Assembly: GCA_903857255.1 (NCBI GenBank)
Contig: CAIODY010000034.1
Location: 8,127 to 72,126 of the forward strand
Origin: an uncultured bacterium
GTDB taxonomy: Bacteria > Bacteroidota > Bacteroidia > Chitinophagales > CAIODY01
Length of the DNA stretch: 64,000 nucleotides
Reading direction: 5' to 3'
The position numbers and the translations under genes were made by a program. This document shows positions 5,167-52,496 of this stretch, piece after piece. A model generated the notes under the pieces. That model saw only the letters and a list, made by a program, of their open reading frames with translations. It made no database searches and was not told the origin of the DNA. Within the stretch, counting starts at the first letter, position 1. Each line of letters begins with the position of its first letter.

Positions 5167-6129
5167 TTAATAACTCCACAAATCGTGTTCGAAGTTAAAA
5201 ATTTCAGTTTTCACTCTTTCTCCTTCTAATAATGCATCTATACCGTTGGCATAATCAGCAATACGTTCATCATTTACGTTAGAAACCTTAATGATGTAGC
5301 TGCTGAAATAACGGAACTCCATGATGTCTTCCCAAGTCATTCTCACAGCATCATTTTGAGGATTGTAAATTTCTTTTTTTGCAAAAATAGGGCGCATATC
5401 GGGGTAGTAAACCCAATACATTGTCGTTAATAATGAACTTCCGCCTGAACTTAAATCCAAAATAGGCGCAATTCCTAAAATACGCACTTGCATAGTTGAC
5501 GTTTCTTCATCAAAAAACCAATCTTCCTTCAAGCGAAATTGATAAATTTTATTTACATCCAACTCACGAACTTTAGGTACATAACCTGTTACCTCACCAG
5601 TTGTAATATCTGTAACTGGCACTGTATCAACACCAGCGCCAATAGTTTTAATAGCAGAAATTTCTTTCTTAACTATAAAATCTTCATCATCAAAAGCGGT
5701 TACTTCACCGTTTAAAACTGCTCTATGAATAACATCAAAGAAGGTTTCATTAGGAAAATGATAAGGGAATTTAAAAGGCAAATTCATTTTCTCACGAACA
5801 TCAATTACTCTCCAAATTCTTTTTTGCCAAAAGATGTCAGCCTCACGAACATAATCATAAGGAATAATGCTTTTTTCCTTAAAATTATTTCGTTCGTAAA
5901 CTCCGTTCAATCTTTGTGAAACTGGTAATGGCTTTAATCCTCCGCTGGCTTGCACAGTAGAAGAATCCTTTCCATTAGGATTATTGGTAGAATCATCAGC
6001 CAACAATTTTACTGTTGACGACTGTTCAGCACCAAAATCTATTTTAGCGGTTTGTGCTGCCATCAATTTTGAATTGAAAAGCAGAACAACCATACCAAAA
6101 ACAACGAATTTTAAAATCTGTTTTTTCAT
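5167..6129 (-). CDS. gldN: Gliding motility / T9SS protein GldN (PorN)
   Basis: Signal peptide, motif DIFWQKRIWRVIDVREKMN, and position directly after gldM. Confidence 0.85.
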   Translation of the reverse strand: MKKQILKFVVFGMVVLLFNSKLMAAQTAKIDFGAEQSSTVKLLADDSTNNPNGKDSSTVQASGGLKPLPVSQRLNGVYERNNFKEKSIIPYDYVREADIFWQKRIWRVIDVREKMNLPFKFPYHFPNETFFDVIHRAVLNGEVTAFDDEDFIVKKEISAIKTIGAGVDTVPVTDITTGEVTGYVPKVRELDVNKIYQFRLKEDWFFDEETSTMQVRILGIAPILDLSSGGSSLLTTMYWVYYPDMRPIFAKKEIYNPQNDAVRMTWEDIMEFRYFSSYIIKVSNVNDERIADYANGIDALLEGERVKTEIFNFEHDLWSY

Positions 6130-6138
6130 ACGAATTGA

Positions 6139-7713
6139 TTATTGAATTATAACAGTTAATGGTGGCAATTTACGAGGTGTGCCATCGCAACCACGAGCAT
6201 AAATATTATCGAAAATAAATTGGTCGCCTGGTTTAGCAGAACCAACCCATCCTTTTATTTGGTCGTTAAACATATTACTGCTGATGCCAGTTGCAATTTT
6301 TGTATCCTGACGTTTTGCTGTGTAATAGCAGTCGTATTTAGTCACCTTAAAAGTACAATCAAATAAGAAGTCTTTCAACACAGCAGAAATACCTGCTTGC
6401 GCTTTAAAGTTAGTTGCAGGCATTTTACCACCCGAAAAACCCCCAATCTCTGCAATTGGGTCAGGAATACGTTTGATACGGAATGGGAAAGCACCAACTG
6501 AATTAACTTTACCATCAGCACTTTTGCCATTCAATGAAATTGAAGTAGTACCTGAACCTAAATTATCAACTTTAATAGTGTAATGACCAGCAGAAACTTT
6601 TGTTAATGCGCCGAAAGAGGTACTTGCATCTACTTTATCAGGTGTATAACCTGCAGCCGAAACCGTAATTGGGTTATCAACACCTATGTAAATCGCATTC
6701 ATTTTTTCAGCAGAAACAGAGCCAAAAGGTTTAATAACCTGGTATTTTTGAGGTTTGGAATTATAAACCTTTTCTTTTCCATCGGGTCCAGTAATTTTAA
6801 TAGTAACCTTATATTCATGCTCTCCTTCGCCGCCACCTAATGAAATCATACCTTTTCCACTTTCTACTTTCACTGGCGAACCATTGACAAGCACTGTTGG
6901 GCTTTGTTTAGTATCAAATGCGGATAAGAAAGCATTAGCTTTAAATTGTTGACCTTCGGCAATAATTGTAGGTCCATCAGGAACAACTTCAGCAGTTAAA
7001 GTATCAAATTTAAAATCAGTTTTACCAATCGTTTTTAACAATTCATCAATTACATCTGATTCGGCAGTACGAATATTTTGTTCAATTCCATTTAAAATAG
7101 TAACACCAGCCACAGCAGGTACTGAATGGAAATTATGAAACCACCATTTCTTCTCAATATCACCTTCCCCATCGGGATAATCATCAGCCCTTAAAGCAAT
7201 CTGTTTATCCAAACTAATCAAATAAGCTCCACTAACTCCTGGAATTCCTTTTAACAAATTCACCAAATTGTGTCGAGTATCATTAATGTTTTTTTGAACT
7301 TGCGAACCGATAGTTCCTTTCTCATCAGGACCAATAAAAATATCACCAGCAGCATCCAAATCCTTCTCATTTTTTAAGCGGTGAGTTTCGGGTTCGTAAC
7401 CTTCGGCTTTAGTAATAATTTGTTGTTTGTACTTTTCAATTTCATCAAAAAGCGCATCGGCAATTTTTTTAGCTTGCTTAGAACGGTCATAAGCCAATTG
7501 AGCTTTCCCTTTATTTAATTCATATTGGTCATCAATAATTTTATAAGTTAATTGATTTTTAGTTTTAAGTGCTGTTTGACCAGTAACAATACCATTATTA
7601 ACGATATTGAAAGCGTTCAAAATTTCAGCAGAAACGTTCATCGCCAGCATGGCTGTTAACACGAGATACATCATGTTAATCATCATCTGCCGAGGTTCTT
7701 TGGGCATTGCCAT
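6139..7713 (-). CDS. gldM: Gliding motility / T9SS protein GldM (PorM)
   Basis: N-terminus PRQMMINMMYLVLTAMLAMNVSAEILNAF is typical of GldM. Single N-terminal TM segment. Lies in gldL-gldM-gldN order. Confidence 0.9.
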   Translation of the reverse strand: MAMPKEPRQMMINMMYLVLTAMLAMNVSAEILNAFNIVNNGIVTGQTALKTKNQLTYKIIDDQYELNKGKAQLAYDRSKQAKKIADALFDEIEKYKQQIITKAEGYEPETHRLKNEKDLDAAGDIFIGPDEKGTIGSQVQKNINDTRHNLVNLLKGIPGVSGAYLISLDKQIALRADDYPDGEGDIEKKWWFHNFHSVPAVAGVTILNGIEQNIRTAESDVIDELLKTIGKTDFKFDTLTAEVVPDGPTIIAEGQQFKANAFLSAFDTKQSPTVLVNGSPVKVESGKGMISLGGGEGEHEYKVTIKITGPDGKEKVYNSKPQKYQVIKPFGSVSAEKMNAIYIGVDNPITVSAAGYTPDKVDASTSFGALTKVSAGHYTIKVDNLGSGTTSISLNGKSADGKVNSVGAFPFRIKRIPDPIAEIGGFSGGKMPATNFKAQAGISAVLKDFLFDCTFKVTKYDCYYTAKRQDTKIATGISSNMFNDQIKGWVGSAKPGDQFIFDNIYARGCDGTPRKLPPLTVIIQ

Positions 7714-45626: not shown

Positions 45627-46064
45627 TTATTTCACACCACTACTTCCAAAGCCACCTGCGCCTCTTTCAGTTTCGGTGATAACTTCAATAGCTTGCCAAT
45701 CAACGGTTTCATGCTTAGCAACAATCATTTGAGCAATTCTATCAGCGTTGTTGATTGTTTGATGTTCATCAGAAAGATTAATCATTGGCACACCAATTTC
45801 ACCTCGATAATCGGCATCAATTGTTCCAGGAGAATTTATAACAGTCAATCCACGTTTCAACGCTAAGCCGCTTCGGGGGCGAACTTGTGCTTCATAACCA
45901 ATTGGCAATTCAATAAATAAACCAGTTGGAATTAATTTTCTTTCCAAAGGTTTTAAAGTAATTGGTTCGACGATGAATGCTCTCAAATCCATGCCAGCAG
46001 CAGATTTGCTTTCGTAAGCAGGCAATGGATTGTTGGATTGATTGATGATTTTTATCTGGAGCAT
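45627..46064 (-). CDS. dut: dUTP diphosphatase
   Basis: Motifs AGMDL, RSGLA and [11 protein letters not shown]. Confidence 0.95.
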
Positions 46065-46713: not shown

Positions 46714-47277
46714 CTATTTATCCGAATTCAAAACCTCTTCAATTTTGTAATAAACTTCAATTAGGGTTTTATAATTCGGGTTGGATTTGTGAAACAAAAA
46801 TGAAGTGTAAAGTATCTGACCTTCATTCAGTTTTATTTCGTTGTCAATCTTCACAATTTTGTTTCTGAATTTCGATTTTTCGTACCAACGATTAAACACA
46901 TTGAATCGCAACTTTGATTTTTCATTTTCATCCGAACAGATGTAAACCAAAGCATTTTCAATGTTTGCAAAAAATTGTTCGATAATTGTTTCAATAGTAA
47001 TCGAAACGCCTGCATCCAAAGGTTCTGTTTCATCAGTTGCTTTGTCAATCACAATCTGATAAATGTTCGGAATTTCAACTTCTGCAATGGTTGAAAAAGT
47101 GTGGTCAACTACAAAAGCTATCCGATATAAAATAGAATTTTTGGTAGTGAAATTATAAGTGTTGGTGATGTTGTCGAAAACAAAATTATAAGGGCTTTGC
47201 AAAATGAATTCCTTTTTTTGTAAGCGATGACAAAGATTTTTTGCCTTTGATATAGGCAACAACATCTTCCTTATCAA
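46714..47277 (-). CDS. DUF6169-like hypothetical protein (start uncertain)
   Basis: The pattern SPYNFVF...YRIAFVVD...ALVYICSDENEKSKLRFNVFNRWY resembles what I recall of DUF6169. The track start is a TTG. The region overlaps a 48-codon ORF in another frame. Confidence 0.5.
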   Translation of the reverse strand: MIRKMLLPISKAKNLCHRLQKKEFILQSPYNFVFDNITNTYNFTTKNSILYRIAFVVDHTFSTIAEVEIPNIYQIVIDKATDETEPLDAGVSITIETIIEQFFANIENALVYICSDENEKSKLRFNVFNRWYEKSKFRNKIVKIDNEIKLNEGQILYTSFLFHKSNPNYKTLIEVYYKIEEVLNSDK

Positions 47278-47332
47278 CCATCATTTTTGAAAGTGATTTA
47301 AGAATATCGGCTTTTTTTATTCTTTTCTTCAT
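47186..47332 (-). CDS. 48-codon ORF upstream of, and overlapping, the DUF6169-like gene (either a separate small gene or its frameshifted N-terminus)
   Basis: Own translation: MKKRIKKADILKSLSKMMVDKEDVVAYIKGKKSLSSLTKKGIHFAKPL*. The frames meet at an A7 run (plus-strand T-run 47213-47219). Confidence 0.3.
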   Translation of the reverse strand: MKKRIKKADILKSLSKMMVDKEDVVAYIKGKKSLSSLTKKGIHFAKPL

Positions 47333-47649
47333 GATGCAAAATTAACTATTAAATTTGCTAAATAACAACAATTATTTTAGGGTTAAATGCAACGGCACTG
47401 CTCAATTCAATGCTTTAATAAAGAACATTGACAATGGCTGAAAGACAAACTTTATAAATTTTCAAGAACATGAAAAAACAAATTGAAACAAGAAGTTACC
47501 AAGCCACAACGCTAAAAGGCTATGCGGCAGCTTGGCGACAACTAATACAGCTTAACTTCTACGGTCACAAAAAGAGAAGAAAAAGTACCTTAATAAATTG
47601 GTTTTCTCTTGTCTTTTTTCTATCTTAGAAGCAATAACAAACCTACTTT

Positions 47650-48288
47650 ATGTACGAGCCAAAATATTATTACTTTGATGAAATATACTTTGAAACTATT
47701 CTTTTTGATGACACAACTGACGTGACAATTTTTGGGTATGTAAATGACAAGGAAAAGGACGAATTATTTTGTTGTGATTTTATTTGTCAGTTTTCAGTGT
47801 TGTATGATATTTTATTTTTTTCTGGAAATGATGGCGAAATTTTGATGAATGAAATAAGTGAAAAATTATCGCATGATTTGGAAATACCTACAGAGATAGA
47901 TGTTGTAGAGATTTTAGAAGACCCTTTGTTAATTGACAAACTCCTTCTTAAAGTTTATAAAACACATGAAAAAGATGAGTTTGGTATTTGGAAAGAATCA
48001 AATGAATCTTGTTATTTCATTGATGAAATTATCGATGAAAGCAAGCATCTTAAACCAATTACGGAAGAAGATTTGGACAAAGCTTTAGAGCATGTGAACT
48101 CATTAGAATATGCCAAAGAACAATTTGAAGAACACATGTTGCTTCTAAACAATGGCTACAAATATTACTTGCAACTAATTGAAAAAGAATTTACAGAAAA
48201 GGATGCAAGAAAAATGAGTGGATTAAAAGATGAATTGCTTTTTAGAATTGCATATTATTACAACAAAATAAAACAAAATGAAAAATGA
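47650..48288 (+). CDS. Strongly acidic hypothetical protein
   Basis: 212 aa with D+E clearly exceeding K+R by eye. ATGA overlap with the next gene. No family recognised. Confidence 0.5.
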   Translation: MYEPKYYYFDEIYFETILFDDTTDVTIFGYVNDKEKDELFCCDFICQFSVLYDILFFSGNDGEILMNEISEKLSHDLEIPTEIDVVEILEDPLLIDKLLLKVYKTHEKDEFGIWKESNESCYFIDEIIDESKHLKPITEEDLDKALEHVNSLEYAKEQFEEHMLLLNNGYKYYLQLIEKEFTEKDARKMSGLKDELLFRIAYYYNKIKQNEK

Positions 48289-48992
48289 AAATCAAAAAAC
48301 TATTTGATGAATTAGAAGCGAAGTACAAAAAAGAAAATGGACAAAGCATTTTTGATGAATCGGGAATGATAATGATTAAAGAAAATCAAAAATTAAATTT
48401 TGGTTTTTTTCCAGCAGGTTCAGGAATATTTGTGCCGAATAAAAGTAAAATTCAAGAAGCAGAAATTGAAGAAGGTGGTGCCATGATTTTAGGAAATGAT
48501 TTTGGAACTCTAACTTATCTAGACAAAATTAACAATGGCGATAAAATTGAAGGAGGTAGTTCAACAATTAGAAATTTGAAAAAACTTGGGCTGGAGAATA
48601 AGTCTTTTCATACCAACTTTTATTTGGGAATTCGTGATGATAAAACTCATGAAGGAACAACAATGACTGACAGAATTGCGCCTCTGGAACAAAACTATAA
48701 GAGCTTTTGTTTCAGATTTTTCTTGAAACAATTAGAAATAATAAATCCTAAAGTGGTGGTTTGTTTGGGACATGATGTTAGGTTGGCACTTGCTGAAAAT
48801 GTACAACAGTTCGCTATTTGGAAATCAAAAAGTATTTCGTTTAAAAAACTTTATTCAACAGATAATTTTGTAATTAATGTTGATGATGAGTTAGGAAAAC
48901 GAAAATTCATTGTTATTCCTCACCCATGTTTCGCCAGCAATTTAAAGAAAAATTACGTTGATAAAATTCTAAAAGAATTGACTTTAAATTAA
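48285..48992 (+). CDS. Divergent uracil-DNA-glycosylase-superfamily-fold protein
   Basis: AMILGNDFGT resembles UNG motif A (ILGQDPY). PKVVVCLGHDVRLAL and VIPHPCFAS resemble the UDG-fold core strand and motif B (HPSP). This is pattern recognition only. Confidence 0.45.
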   Translation: MKIKKLFDELEAKYKKENGQSIFDESGMIMIKENQKLNFGFFPAGSGIFVPNKSKIQEAEIEEGGAMILGNDFGTLTYLDKINNGDKIEGGSSTIRNLKKLGLENKSFHTNFYLGIRDDKTHEGTTMTDRIAPLEQNYKSFCFRFFLKQLEIINPKVVVCLGHDVRLALAENVQQFAIWKSKSISFKKLYSTDNFVINVDDELGKRKFIVIPHPCFASNLKKNYVDKILKELTLN

Positions 48993-49122: not shown

Positions 49123-50976
49123 ATGAGTGCTACAATCGAAAAATTAAGTGATGTTGTCATAAAATTCGCTGGCGATTCGGGCGATGGAATGCAATTAACA
49201 GGTGGTCAGTTTACCAATGCTGCTGCATTGTATGGCAACGACTTGGCTACTTTCCCCGATTTTCCTGCCGAAATTCGTGCGCCACAAGGCACTATTCCTG
49301 GTGTTTCGGGCTTTCAATTACATTTTAGTTCAAACGAAATTTTTACACCTGGCGATAATTGCGATGTATTAGTTGCCATGAATGCTGCGGCTGTAAAATC
49401 AAATTTATTCAACTTAAAAAAAGGTGGAATTATCATTGTAGATACCAATGGTTTTGATGCAAAAAATTTGCGCTTGGCAAATTATGCCGAAGGCGCAAAT
49501 CCTTTAGAGGATGGCACTTTGGATGGTTATAAACTCTACAAAATTGATGTTACGAAATTAACTCGTGAAGCATTAGCCGACATGGCTGGCTTGGGCATGA
49601 AAGAAAAAGACCGCTCGAAAAATATGTTTGTGTTGGGTTTTTTATATTGGATGTATAATCGCAACATGGATTTTACCATCAATTTCTTGACAGAAAAATT
49701 TGGTAAAAAACCAGAGATTTTAGAATCGAATATAAAAGTGTTGAAAGCTGGTTACAATTATGGCGACACCACTGAAACTTTCATGACACGATATGAAGTG
49801 CCAAAAGCAAAAGTTGAAGCTGGAACTTATCGCAGCATCATGGGTAATCAGGCTGTGGCCATGGGTTTTGTGGCTGCTTCACAAAAAAGTGGCTTACCAT
49901 TATTCTTAGCTTCTTACCCAATCACACCAGCATCAGATATTTTACACGACTTATCAAAATATAAAAACTTTGGCGTACGCACTATGCAATGCGAAGATGA
50001 AATTGCATCTATCTGTGCAGCCATAGGAGCAGCTTACGGCGGAAACTTAGCTATTACAACATCTTCAGGACCTGGCATTGCGTTAAAAGGTGAAGCGATT
50101 GGTTTGGCAGTGATGATGGAATTGCCATTAGTTGTTGTAAATATTCAACGTGGTGGACCTTCTACAGGTTTACCAACTAAAACTGAACAAGCAGATTTAT
50201 TACAAGCATTATATGGTAGAAATGGCGAATGCCCTATGGTAGTGATTTCTACGTCAACACCAAGTGATTGTTTTGAAGTTACAATTGAAGCATGTCGCAT
50301 CGCTTTGCAACACATGGTGCCTGTTATGTTATTGAGCGATGGTTATATTGCCAATGGTGCAGAGCCTTGGAAATTCCCTAAAGCCAGTGATATTGCGCCT
50401 ATCGAAGTAAAATTTAAAACAAAATTGGATGAAGGCGAAACAAAATTTTTGCCTTACAAACGCGATGAAAAATTAGGTCGTCCGTGGGTAACACCTGGAA
50501 CGCCAGAGTTGATGCACCGTTTGGGTGGTTTAGAAAAACAACATGAAACAGGTAATGTAAGCTACGACCCTGAAAATCATGAATTCATGATTAAAATGAG
50601 AGCTGCAAAAGTGGAGAAAGTAGCTGATTATATGCCTTTGCAAAAAATTGAAGTGGGTGCTGAAAAAGGAAAAATATTAGTGTTGGGTTGGGGTTCAACT
50701 TATGGTTCGATTAAATCAACAGTGTTAGATTTGATTGCCGAAGGTTATTCTATCAGCCATGCACACGTTCGCTACATGAATCCGTTGCCAAAAAATTTGG
50801 GTGATGTGTTGAAAAATTTCGAACACGTAATTATTCCTGAAATCAACAGCGGACAATTTATTAAAGTGGTTCGTGATAAATATTTGGTAGATGCAAAAGG
50901 TTATAACAAAACACAAGGAACACCAATTTCAAAAACAGAATTGAAGGAATTTATTAAGACCAATTATAGCAAATAA
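49123..50976 (+). CDS. korA: 2-oxoglutarate/2-oxoacid:ferredoxin oxidoreductase, alpha subunit
   Basis: N-terminus VIKFAGDSGDGMQLTG; 617 aa; followed by the beta subunit. Confidence 0.9.
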   Translation: MSATIEKLSDVVIKFAGDSGDGMQLTGGQFTNAAALYGNDLATFPDFPAEIRAPQGTIPGVSGFQLHFSSNEIFTPGDNCDVLVAMNAAAVKSNLFNLKKGGIIIVDTNGFDAKNLRLANYAEGANPLEDGTLDGYKLYKIDVTKLTREALADMAGLGMKEKDRSKNMFVLGFLYWMYNRNMDFTINFLTEKFGKKPEILESNIKVLKAGYNYGDTTETFMTRYEVPKAKVEAGTYRSIMGNQAVAMGFVAASQKSGLPLFLASYPITPASDILHDLSKYKNFGVRTMQCEDEIASICAAIGAAYGGNLAITTSSGPGIALKGEAIGLAVMMELPLVVVNIQRGGPSTGLPTKTEQADLLQALYGRNGECPMVVISTSTPSDCFEVTIEACRIALQHMVPVMLLSDGYIANGAEPWKFPKASDIAPIEVKFKTKLDEGETKFLPYKRDEKLGRPWVTPGTPELMHRLGGLEKQHETGNVSYDPENHEFMIKMRAAKVEKVADYMPLQKIEVGAEKGKILVLGWGSTYGSIKSTVLDLIAEGYSISHAHVRYMNPLPKNLGDVLKNFEHVIIPEINSGQFIKVVRDKYLVDAKGYNKTQGTPISKTELKEFIKTNYSK

Positions 50977-51054: not shown

Positions 51055-51407
51055 ATGGCTAGTGGAAGTGAAAATATTATTTTGCAAAAAACATTTTCTT
51101 TTGCTGTCAGAATTGTAAAGTTGAATTGGTTTTTGATAGAGAAGAAAAAAAGTTTGTGCTTGCCAAACAAGTTTTAAGAAGCGGCACTTCGATTGGTGCT
51201 AATGCCGAAGAAGCCGTTGCAAGCCGCAGTAGAAAAGAGTTTATAGCTAAGTTTGGAATTGTTTATTCAGAAGCTAAAGAAACCAAATATTGGCTACGAC
51301 TTTTAAAAGAAACAGAATTGATTGATGAAAAAATGTTCTTATCACTGCTTGATGATTGCGAAGAAATAATAAAGATTGTTTTCAAAATCATTGAGTCATC
51401 AAAATAA
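51055..51407 (+). pseudogene. Four-helix-bundle protein (23S rRNA intervening-sequence protein family), frameshifted
   Basis: Frame 1 (51055-51177): MASGSENIILQKTFSFAVRIVKLNWFLIEKKK... Then the track ORF (51126-51407): ...EEKKFVLAKQVLRSGTSIGANAEEA...EAKETKYWLRLL. Together they reconstitute the family pattern. The frames switch at the A7 run 51145-51151. Confidence 0.7.
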
Positions 51408-51470: not shown

Positions 51471-52496
51471 ATGAGTGAAGTAATTGAAAAAGCAGCATTA
51501 ACAAGTAAAGATTTTGCCAACGACCAAGATATTCGTTGGTGTCCAGGTTGCGGTGATTATAGTATTTTGAAACAAGTGCAAACCATTTTGCCGCAGGTTG
51601 GGGCATCGTTGGAAAACACCGTGTTTGTAAGCGGAATTGGCTGTAGTAGCCGTTTCCCGTATTACATGAACACCTATGGATTGCACACCATTCATGGTAG
51701 AGCAACTGCTATTGCAAGTGGCTTAAAAGCATCCCGACCTGATTTGGATGTGTGGATTATCAGCGGCGATGGCGATAGTATGAGCATTGGCGCAGGACAC
51801 ACCATTCATTTGTTGCGCAGAAATTTAAACGTGAATTTTTTGATTTTCAATAATCAAATTTATGGTTTAACAAAAGGGCAATATTCGCCAACATCCGAAG
51901 AAAATAAAATTACCAAATCTTCGCCGATGGGTTCTATCGACCATCCATTTAATCCTGCTGCATTGGCTCTGGGAGCCGATTCGAGTTTTGTGGCAAGAAG
52001 TGTGGATAGAGACCCAAAACATTTGCAAGAGATTTTAAAACGAGCACATGCACACAAAGGAACTTCGTTTGTAGAAATTTATCAAAACTGCAACATCTTT
52101 AATGACGGGGCTTTTGAGGTGTTTACCGAAAAAGGAACGAAAAAGATGCACACACTTTTAGTAGAAAATGGCAAGCCATTAATTTTTGGCGACAACAACG
52201 AATTGGGAATAAAATTAGATGGTTTTACACCTAAAATTGTAAACTTAAACGAAGGCAATTCTGCCAATGATTTATGGATACATGATGAATCGGAATTGAT
52301 GAAAGCATCGTTGTTGGTTCGCATGTTCGACGACCCAGCAAAAGAAGGTGCAATGCCTCGACCATTTGGTGTGTTTTATCAAAACGATAGATTGGTGTAT
52401 GAAGATGTAATGCATGCTCAAATTGCTACAGCCATGGCTAAACCTGGCGATTTGGATAAATTAATTGCTGGCAAAGAAACTTGGACAGTGAATTAA
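51471..52496 (+). CDS. korB: 2-oxoglutarate/2-oxoacid:ferredoxin oxidoreductase, beta subunit
   Basis: Motif CPGCGDY and TPP motif SGDGD. Confidence 0.9.
   Translation: MSEVIEKAALTSKDFANDQDIRWCPGCGDYSILKQVQTILPQVGASLENTVFVSGIGCSSRFPYYMNTYGLHTIHGRATAIASGLKASRPDLDVWIISGDGDSMSIGAGHTIHLLRRNLNVNFLIFNNQIYGLTKGQYSPTSEENKITKSSPMGSIDHPFNPAALALGADSSFVARSVDRDPKHLQEILKRAHAHKGTSFVEIYQNCNIFNDGAFEVFTEKGTKKMHTLLVENGKPLIFGDNNELGIKLDGFTPKIVNLNEGNSANDLWIHDESELMKASLLVRMFDDPAKEGAMPRPFGVFYQNDRLVYEDVMHAQIATAMAKPGDLDKLIAGKETWTVN

Follow-up and report, generated by a model that had tools for sequence, protein, structure and literature searches.

The window, that is the whole stretch of 64,000 nucleotides (nt) analysed here from the uncultured Chitinophagales lineage CAIODY01 (contig CAIODY010000034.1), contains two consecutive genes that we call A and B, the first encoding an acidic protein and the second a probable DNA glycosylase of the uracil-DNA glycosylase (UDG) superfamily (Table 1). 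They overlap within the sequence AAAAATGAAAATC, where the ATG of B occupies positions 48285–48287 and the TGA of A positions 48286–48288, and the ATGA overlap reported in the initial annotation was thus placed correctly. Both are real genes and not chance open reading frames (ORFs), since both have homologs and the pair recurs, identical and in the same neighbourhood, in metagenomic data of the source population (12 contigs), which also indicates that the cassette is stable there. The gene order at the locus is pepA, smpB, dut, gmk and a DUF6169 gene, then A and B, and then korA, an IVP-like gene, korB and a band-7 gene. By composition, the DUF6169 gene and the A–B cassette form an islet of 2.3 kb with a GC content of 0.28–0.31, against 0.35–0.42 in the flanks.

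Protein B (isoelectric point, pI, 8.9) had been singled out for three peptides resembling UDG motifs, AMILGNDFGT, PKVVVCLGHDV and VIPHPCFAS, all of which it contains (residues 65–75, 155–165 and 210–218), and the likeness goes beyond chance. The Pfam UDG profile PF03167 matches B with E=7.7e-5 and 23.2 bits, just below the cut-off of 24.3 bits, which two relatives of B exceed (28.4 bits in L059 and 36 bits in L056), and the NCBIfam family-4 UDG models reach 19–21 bits against cut-offs of 125–250; PHROGs contributed nothing informative on B. A single-sequence search of a set of 5.8 billion proteins retrieved 72 homologs (39–51% identity), and an AlphaFold2 model built on an alignment of 64 sequences has a predicted local distance difference test score (pLDDT) of 86.9 and a predicted template modelling score of 0.87. 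When this model was compared with the PDB by Foldseek, all 36 matches at E≤1e-3 were UDG-superfamily enzymes, the best being UdgX and family-4 UDGs (T. maritima, T. thermophilus and S. tokodaii, the last as 4zby), followed by TDG and SMUG1; the top matches have E from 4e-6 to 1e-2 and template modelling (TM) scores of 0.45–0.57. The UNG-type structure in this list is a weak match (5gn2, E=4.5e-3, TM 0.3), and a PDB sequence search with the B profile gave marginal matches to family-4 UDGs only and none to UNG. The relative of B that is 29% identical to it matches S. tokodaii UDG also by sequence (E=5.5e-6), with cfFTNVimGaRP aligned on vfITNVVKCRPP and the helix-strand segment C..fL..QIeIlkPKliivLG on its counterpart. 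According to its predicted structure B has the UDG fold, on which the model, Foldseek and Pfam agree, and at the level of the active site it carries motif A, the strand-2 Asn (TN) and motif B (HP) in the standard order.

Invariant across the 64 aligned sequences are F41-F42-P43, G47, L69-G70-N71-D72-F73-G74, E89, F108, N111, G115, Q149, P155, C160, G162 and H213-P214. The fold search proposed as a check in the initial annotation thus returned the UDG superfamily, and the Asp (D72) and His (H213) of interest there are invariant. The motifs of B read G70-N-D72-F-G74, FxT110-N111-FYLGxR, C160-L-G162 and H213-P214, with catalytic roles assigned from established UDG knowledge. We take the Asp at the third position of motif A to correspond to the one that activates water in family 1 (GQDPY), and the terminal Gly of this motif to be that of families 2 and 3 (GINPG, GMNPG), where UNG has a Tyr that excludes 5-substituted pyrimidines. 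With Gly in place of this Tyr, B may accept 5-substituted pyrimidines, and its candidate substrates are uracil or 5-substituted uracil or thymine derivatives. It is not a family 1 UNG, having GNDFG as motif A and IPHPC as motif B where GQDPYH and HPSPLS are required, and giving no UNG sequence match. Neither is it a strict member of family 4, family 5 or UdgX: besides its GNDFG motif A, its only cysteines are C142, C160 and C215, none before residue 142, and it is therefore unable to hold a 4Fe-4S cluster. B also has an N-terminal extension of about 60 residues with an invariant GFFP(L)GxG. It probably represents an undescribed UDG subfamily that is related to family 4 and has no Fe-S cluster.

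Protein A is indeed strongly acidic, as had been noted at first sight, with 50 Asp and Glu against 23 Lys and Arg, a pI of 4.40 and a net charge of about −27. The charge lies in residues 1–130 (net −25, pI 4.05), the C-terminal 62 residues being neutral, and all the family members examined are acidic (pI 4.3–4.6); a charge density like that of the N-domain is typical of DNA mimics (Ocr, ArdA, Ugi). The AlphaFold2 model (pLDDT 84) consists of a beta-rich domain (residues 1–130) with two inserted helices, a linker of low confidence and four C-terminal helices. Among the closest homologs the linker (131–160) is hypervariable, with 30–39% identity against 80–89% in the N-domain, and the helical tail provides the most conserved motif, ARKxSGLKDELLFRIA. 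Homologs of A numbered 16 by single-sequence search and 57 by profile, and an exhaustive search with a hidden Markov model (HMM) raised this to 166 representatives at 50% identity. No family was found for A in Pfam, NCBIfam or PADLOC, PHROGs were uninformative, a PDB profile sequence search was empty, and Pfam scans of 16 family members gave scattered noise only, with no helix-turn-helix (HTH), ribbon-helix-helix (RHH) or AbrB domain detected in A. In terms of sequence, A is an unannotated family of about 166 clusters. Foldseek comparison of the A model with the PDB and with the viral models of BFVD gave no match at E≤1e-3; the top-ranking ones, with E between about 3e-3 and 1e-2, consistently have oligonucleotide-binding (OB) folds of the single-stranded-DNA-binding protein (SSB) type in both libraries, and the modelled beta-domain may be OB-like. 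A search for domain fusions found long forms of A, of 380–475 aa, whose extensions are unannotated. It also found one protein (P0139) in which residues 4–149 of the A N-domain run into a complete Csx1/Csm6 CARF-HEPN protein (PADLOC E=8e-90), either a real fusion of acidic domain and effector or the product of truncation followed by read-through. Read-through is the likely origin, given an internal Met where the two parts join, and P0139 was not used as a Rosetta-stone fusion in evidence.

The surroundings of A could be compared in 13 informative, distinct contexts, and a UDG-fold gene of PF03167 type lies directly 3′ of A in six of them (the window, L045, L049, L056, L059 and, as a start only, L058). 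Those of the B family after A are recognised by the HMM with E from 1e-65 to 1e-90 and are 41–48% identical to B; what follows A in the other contexts is listed in Table 1. The two genes overlap by 1–17 nt in all seven fully readable contexts with UDG-fold, DUF1643 or nuclease-like genes (L058 excepted), the overlap being ATGA in the window and in L056 and ranging over 1–17 nt in L002, L041, L045, L049 and L059. The A proteins of the window and L056 are 80% identical and the UDGs downstream of them only 29%. The A proteins of L045 and L002 are 56% identical, each nearer to the other than to the A of the window, and they are followed by a B-family gene in the former and a DUF1643 gene in the latter, two families without detectable similarity. 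This discordance indicates repeated replacement of the downstream enzyme, with A itself conserved. As a genome carries only a handful of UDG-fold genes, chance is excluded as the origin of the A–UDG link in six or seven of the 13 contexts. UDG-fold genes, and in one case a nuclease-like gene, thus have in A a dedicated partner to which they are translationally coupled. The module of a glycosylase and an acidic partner put forward in the initial annotation stands in so far as the coupling is recurrent and conserved, and loses ground in that A is unlike the known UDG inhibitors by Foldseek in PDB and BFVD.

Table 1. Features of the A–B locus in the window, genes downstream of A in the contexts compared, and features at other loci of the two families (positions are those of the window unless a locus is named).
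Feature or context	Position	Strand	Description
dut (dUTPase)	45627–46064	−	window neighbour, 1.6 kb from the UDG-like gene
AT-rich islet between gmk and korA	46714–48992		DUF6169 gene and A–B cassette; delimited by composition
DUF6169 gene	46714–47277	−	Pfam E=1e-14
Intergenic region, divergent DUF6169 gene to gene A	47278–47649		presumed promoter of the A–B operon
Gene A (ORF A)	47650–48288	+	212 aa, acidic; from the ORF listing and sequence
ATGA stop/start overlap of A and B	48285–48288	+	implies translational coupling
Gene B (ORF B)	48285–48992	+	235 aa, divergent UDG-superfamily protein, probable DNA glycosylase
korA	49123–50976		
23S_rRNA_IVP family gene	51126–51407	+	93 aa, four-helix bundle
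korB	51471–52496		
After A: window; P0088 (L045–47); P0097 (L049–50); P0115 (L059–60)			B-family UDG gene, overlap 4–17 nt
After A: P0074 (L056–57)			ATGA overlap, then UDG-fold protein with 29% identity to B; 36 bits with the Pfam UDG profile; probability 98.9% by hhalign
After A: P0075 (L058)			start of a gene of the L056 type
After A: P0076 (L002–05, L037)			DUF1643 protein, E=4.8e-26, overlap 1 nt
After A: P0085 (L041–44)			165-aa protein with weak PD-(D/E)XK match
After A: 2 of 13 contexts			unrelated unknown proteins after a gap
After A: 3 of 13 contexts (L048, L040, L051)			38-aa remnant or nothing
Azaca next to A–UDG pair	L059 5487–8568 onward; L060 2442–5523		complete-looking: ZacA, ZacB, helicase
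U1/U2 genes upstream of B-family genes	L001 5652–5999; L013 2919–3239; L006 5535–5936; L007 5628–5990; L010 3–404		

An alignment of eight DUF1643 sequences compared by hhalign with a profile of B type (A3) gave E=0.16, which is not significant, the weak alignment placing NLYxxR on TNFYLGxR, WG on CLG and GHPRHP on IPHP; DUF1643 belongs, we assume, to Pfam's UDG clan. The 165-aa partner in L041 has a weak PD-(D/E)XK match in Pfam (E=0.044), falls to phrog_5018, a family without assigned function, in PHROGs, and gave no match in a PDB sequence search. The solitary A of L040 is followed (6648–6930) by a short segment in two copies, with ESFRRSWCSKSLQIKLF encoded in each, perhaps a repeat element that has taken the place of the partner gene.

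The cassette is patchy in distribution, mobile, and sometimes found in defence islands. The closest homologs of A are flanked differently from the window, by an Amt-like transporter and a short-chain dehydrogenase, which argues that A and B move as a unit. DUF6169 is not adjacent to these closest homologs, and their differing flanks speak against its membership in the module. In L059/60 the A–UDG pair lies 49 nt 5′ of ZacA (8e-91), ZacB (2.5e-134) and a helicase, which form Azaca, described as an anti-phage system (bioRxiv 10.1101/2025.07.10.664194); the PADLOC matches in L059 are limited to the neighbouring ZacA and ZacB. On the 5′ side, these loci show a WYL/WCX regulator and two tandem genes of 110 aa just before A, one of them a C-terminal fragment of S-adenosylmethionine synthetase. 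In L041/42 the pair of A and the nuclease-like gene adjoins an HTH gene, a Dam-type methyltransferase and RE_AlwI, that is, a type II restriction-modification (R-M) system. With one cassette next to Azaca and another next to a type II R-M system, the anti-phage setting suggested in the initial annotation is plausible.

Around the cassette in the window, flanking repeats, RNA families and convincing terminators were searched for at its boundaries and none were found. A scan of 47278–47649 for promoters of sigma-70 type, which omits promoters of the Bacteroidota type, gave no more sites than shuffled sequence, and a 52-aa ORF at 47470–47628 within this region is doubtful. The proximity of dut is absent at other B loci and probably coincidental. 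On the other side, the IVP-family gene is inserted between korA and korB and coincides with a local dip in GC.

Genes of the B family were also searched for independently of A, by a pattern-based scan of 185,579 species genomes that returned 31 loci, a number to be read as a lower bound. Their hosts are Chitinophagaceae, Mucilaginibacter, Saprospiraceae and Sphingobacteriales, with distant relatives in Planctomycetota, Poribacteria, Acidobacteriota and Gemmatimonadota. Many loci have other small, mostly mildly acidic genes upstream of B, namely U1 (n=5), U2 (n=3) and a DUF6036 nucleotidyltransferase (n=1). U1 (about 106–115 aa, signature MWDQFFDGYCPESKL) and U2 (about 120–133 aa, signature IEGEFFYC) are both unannotated; they were considered as remote homologs of A and rejected, as hhalign found no relation, and they may be functional analogues of it. 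Next to dnaN we found, in one genome, a B homolog directly 3′ of it (L008, 4825–6708) and, in another, a solitary A directly 5′ of dnaN-recF-dciA-gyrB (L051, 4001–6016), and this adjacency may reflect an origin-proximal hot spot of insertion or a link to the clamp. The distant B-like genes of Poribacteria (L026, L029, L031, L032 and L034, at about 5890–6750) include one, in L032, that is split into two ORFs.

We tentatively read the locus as a mobile two-gene conflict module in which the glycosylase B is controlled by its partner A, a reading that we rate somewhat short of an even chance. It would be a self-contained, horizontally mobile cassette in which A is made first and, through translational coupling, in fixed proportion to B. 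B is predicted to be an active DNA glycosylase within the UDG superfamily and would, we infer, flip out and excise a base of pyrimidine type, most probably uracil or a derivative of uracil or thymine substituted at position 5, leaving abasic sites. A would be a dedicated partner controlling DNA-acting effectors, most likely by physical binding of its acidic N-domain to the DNA-binding face of the effector, and in this way it might inhibit the enzyme, like a safety catch or an immunity protein, until infection or another trigger sets it free. The role of the module would most likely be in genetic conflict, as a Brig-like anti-phage defence or an addiction module. The safety catch is the single most likely mechanism for A, favoured because of the charge of the N-domain, the upstream position of the gene and its tolerance of different DNA-acting partners, and also because orphan copies of A persist and both domains of A, N- and C-terminal, are conserved before swapped effectors. 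Its likelihood is nevertheless well below even because homologs of B thrive without A and the precedent of BapA (see below) is that of a helper. It would be somewhat unlikely, on what we have, that A forms a whole family of DNA-mimic-like safety catches, released by infection, for interchangeable effectors (UDG-fold lineages, DUF1643 and a PD-(D/E)XK-like nuclease).

Several observations weigh against the controlled conflict module. All 31 genome loci of the B family lack an A gene, and several of them (L008, L011, L015 and L016 among the solitary examples) lack any partner. B-family genes being mostly without A, B is not intrinsically lethal and not an obligately neutralised toxin. In the distant Poribacteria clade the B-like gene has a fixed synteny, between thiC and a Gfo/Idh/MocA oxidoreductase gene, which suggests vertical inheritance and a housekeeping role. 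The cassette of the window itself lies amid housekeeping genes, with no defence gene nearby, and the PADLOC-DB v2 models gave no match to A, B or the alternative upstream partners. Ugi, p56, SAUGI, Ocr and ArdA are not among the listed Foldseek matches of A in PDB and BFVD. A phage origin of A and B is also unsupported, as the pattern scan of IMG/VR found no relative of either and the DUF1643 contigs of the phage collection carry no A homolog.

Other explanations share part of this evidence. A could be an accessory factor of the Brig3–BapA kind, aiding B by recognising or processing the substrate, for instance by reading a base decoration or taking it off, by recruitment through the OB-like domain to replication intermediates or by sensing of a phage component. 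Brig3 and BapA also come from overlapping ORFs, with BapA widening the range of Brig3, homologs of B are present and presumably working without A, as for an optional add-on, and the SSB/OB-fold matches of the A beta-domain, although weak, are consistent in two libraries. However, a net charge of −25 on this same domain argues against nucleic-acid binding, the two ASCH-like beta-barrels and basic DNA cleft described for BapA are unlike A, the Pfam, NCBIfam and PADLOC scans detected no catalytic motif or enzyme family in A, and the one A clade with a non-UDG, nuclease-like partner is more easily explained by a controller of general use than by a helper specific to one substrate, so that we consider this role unlikely. 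We give a similarly low probability to a plain repair function, with B as a housekeeping or back-up glycosylase for uracil or damaged pyrimidines, A as a repair cofactor and no role in conflict. The canonical catalytic Asp, Asn and His kept in B would agree with it, and so would the housekeeping neighbours in the window, including dut, the Poribacteria synteny and the positions next to dnaN in L008 and L051. It is harder to reconcile with the very patchy distribution, the AT-rich islet, the presence of the cassette at different genomic places in close relatives, the swapping of the effector, the Azaca and R-M systems adjoining some cassettes, and the decayed copies.

A pure addiction module of the type II toxin-antitoxin class, in which B damages host DNA, a labile A neutralises it and the islet is thereby stabilised with no role against phages, appears very unlikely. 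An acidic upstream gene translationally coupled to a basic downstream one (pI 4.4 vs. 8.9) would be in keeping with it, as would the orphan copies of A, one with a decayed downstream gene, and the mobility of the cassette; yet B-family genes are often solitary, no autoregulatory DNA-binding domain is recognised in A, several of the A-linked UDG proteins are not basic (pI 6.2–6.5), and our literature searches gave no UDG-fold toxin of a toxin-antitoxin system. That A and B have no functional relation and are neighbours overlapping by accident is hardly credible. Most homologs of B do occur without A and some homologs of A without a partner, but the recurrence of overlapping A–UDG pairs with UDG lineages only 29% identical, and of the overlap with DUF1643, effectively refutes it.

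The B subfamily, the A family and the systematic coupling of A to UDG-fold genes are undescribed in the libraries and literature searched. The use of UDG-fold glycosylases as anti-phage effectors is itself a recent finding (Brig1 in 2024, Brig2 and Brig3–BapA in 2025–26), with one accessory protein so far. The B subfamily combines the catalytic Asp of family 1 with Gly at the position of the thymine-excluding Tyr of UNG, which suggests activity on 5-substituted pyrimidines. If A regulates or inhibits its partners, it would show how a genome-damaging glycosylase is kept safe in cells, it would give base editors and other tools built on glycosylases a protein that inhibits or controls them across a broad spectrum, and it would be a searchable marker gene for new DNA-targeting effectors. 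Should the safety-catch family be real, no earlier toxin-antitoxin or abortive-infection module would be based on a glycosylase, and the inhibitor would be a generic one to which swapped effectors are acceptable.

Among known systems, the family 4 UDGs and UdgX are the best structural matches of B and have colinear motifs; B differs in lacking the 4Fe-4S cysteines, in GNDFG vs. GE(A/G/Q)PG, in its N-terminal extension of about 60 residues and in TM scores of only 0.45–0.57. The inhibitors Ugi, p56 and SAUGI are, like A, acidic proteins genetically tied to a UDG-fold enzyme, but A is much larger (212 aa vs. 56–112 aa), is encoded by the host in the same operon as the enzyme, has none of them among its listed Foldseek matches and also pairs with enzymes that are not of UNG type. 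With type II toxin-antitoxin and immunity cassettes the locus shares an acidic upstream gene overlapping the gene of a DNA-targeting enzyme, the exchange of effectors, orphan partners and decayed effectors. The B family is, in contrast to the toxins of such systems, often solitary, and the Pfam scans of A detected no DNA-binding domain of the autoregulatory kind. With solitary B genes and no HTH, RHH or AbrB domain in A, A–B cannot be called a type II toxin-antitoxin system by definition; its layout and polarity nevertheless resemble one.

The closest parallels are found in the Brig systems, with which we could compare A–B by description only. Brig1 is a single-gene defence glycosylase that best matches S. 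tokodaii UDG and has Glu where canonical UDGs have Asn (PMC11078745), and homologs of Brig2 have been reported in Bacteroidota, Planctomycetota and Gemmatimonadota (bioRxiv 10.1101/2025.10.29.685425). B resembles both in its divergent UDG fold nearest to the family-4 UDGs, in matching S. tokodaii UDG (4zby), in a patchy distribution linked to islands or mobile elements and in having relatives in the phyla reported for Brig2; unlike them, which are single-gene systems, it comes with a partner, and it keeps Asn where Brig1 uses Glu. The 50 best Foldseek matches of B in the PDB include no Brig structure. In Brig3–BapA the ORFs overlap with the glycosylase first, and BapA, described as a pair of ASCH-like beta-barrels in which DNA is bound by a basic cleft and an Asp is catalytic, has glucosyl-hydrolase activity and modulates a Brig3 that can work alone (bioRxiv 10.64898/2026.02.25.707755). 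In A–B the partner comes first, and A has one very acidic beta-domain plus helices and no catalytic signature. What both have in common is a UDG-superfamily gene joined, through overlapping ORFs and in a defence-type context, to a partner of previously unknown function.

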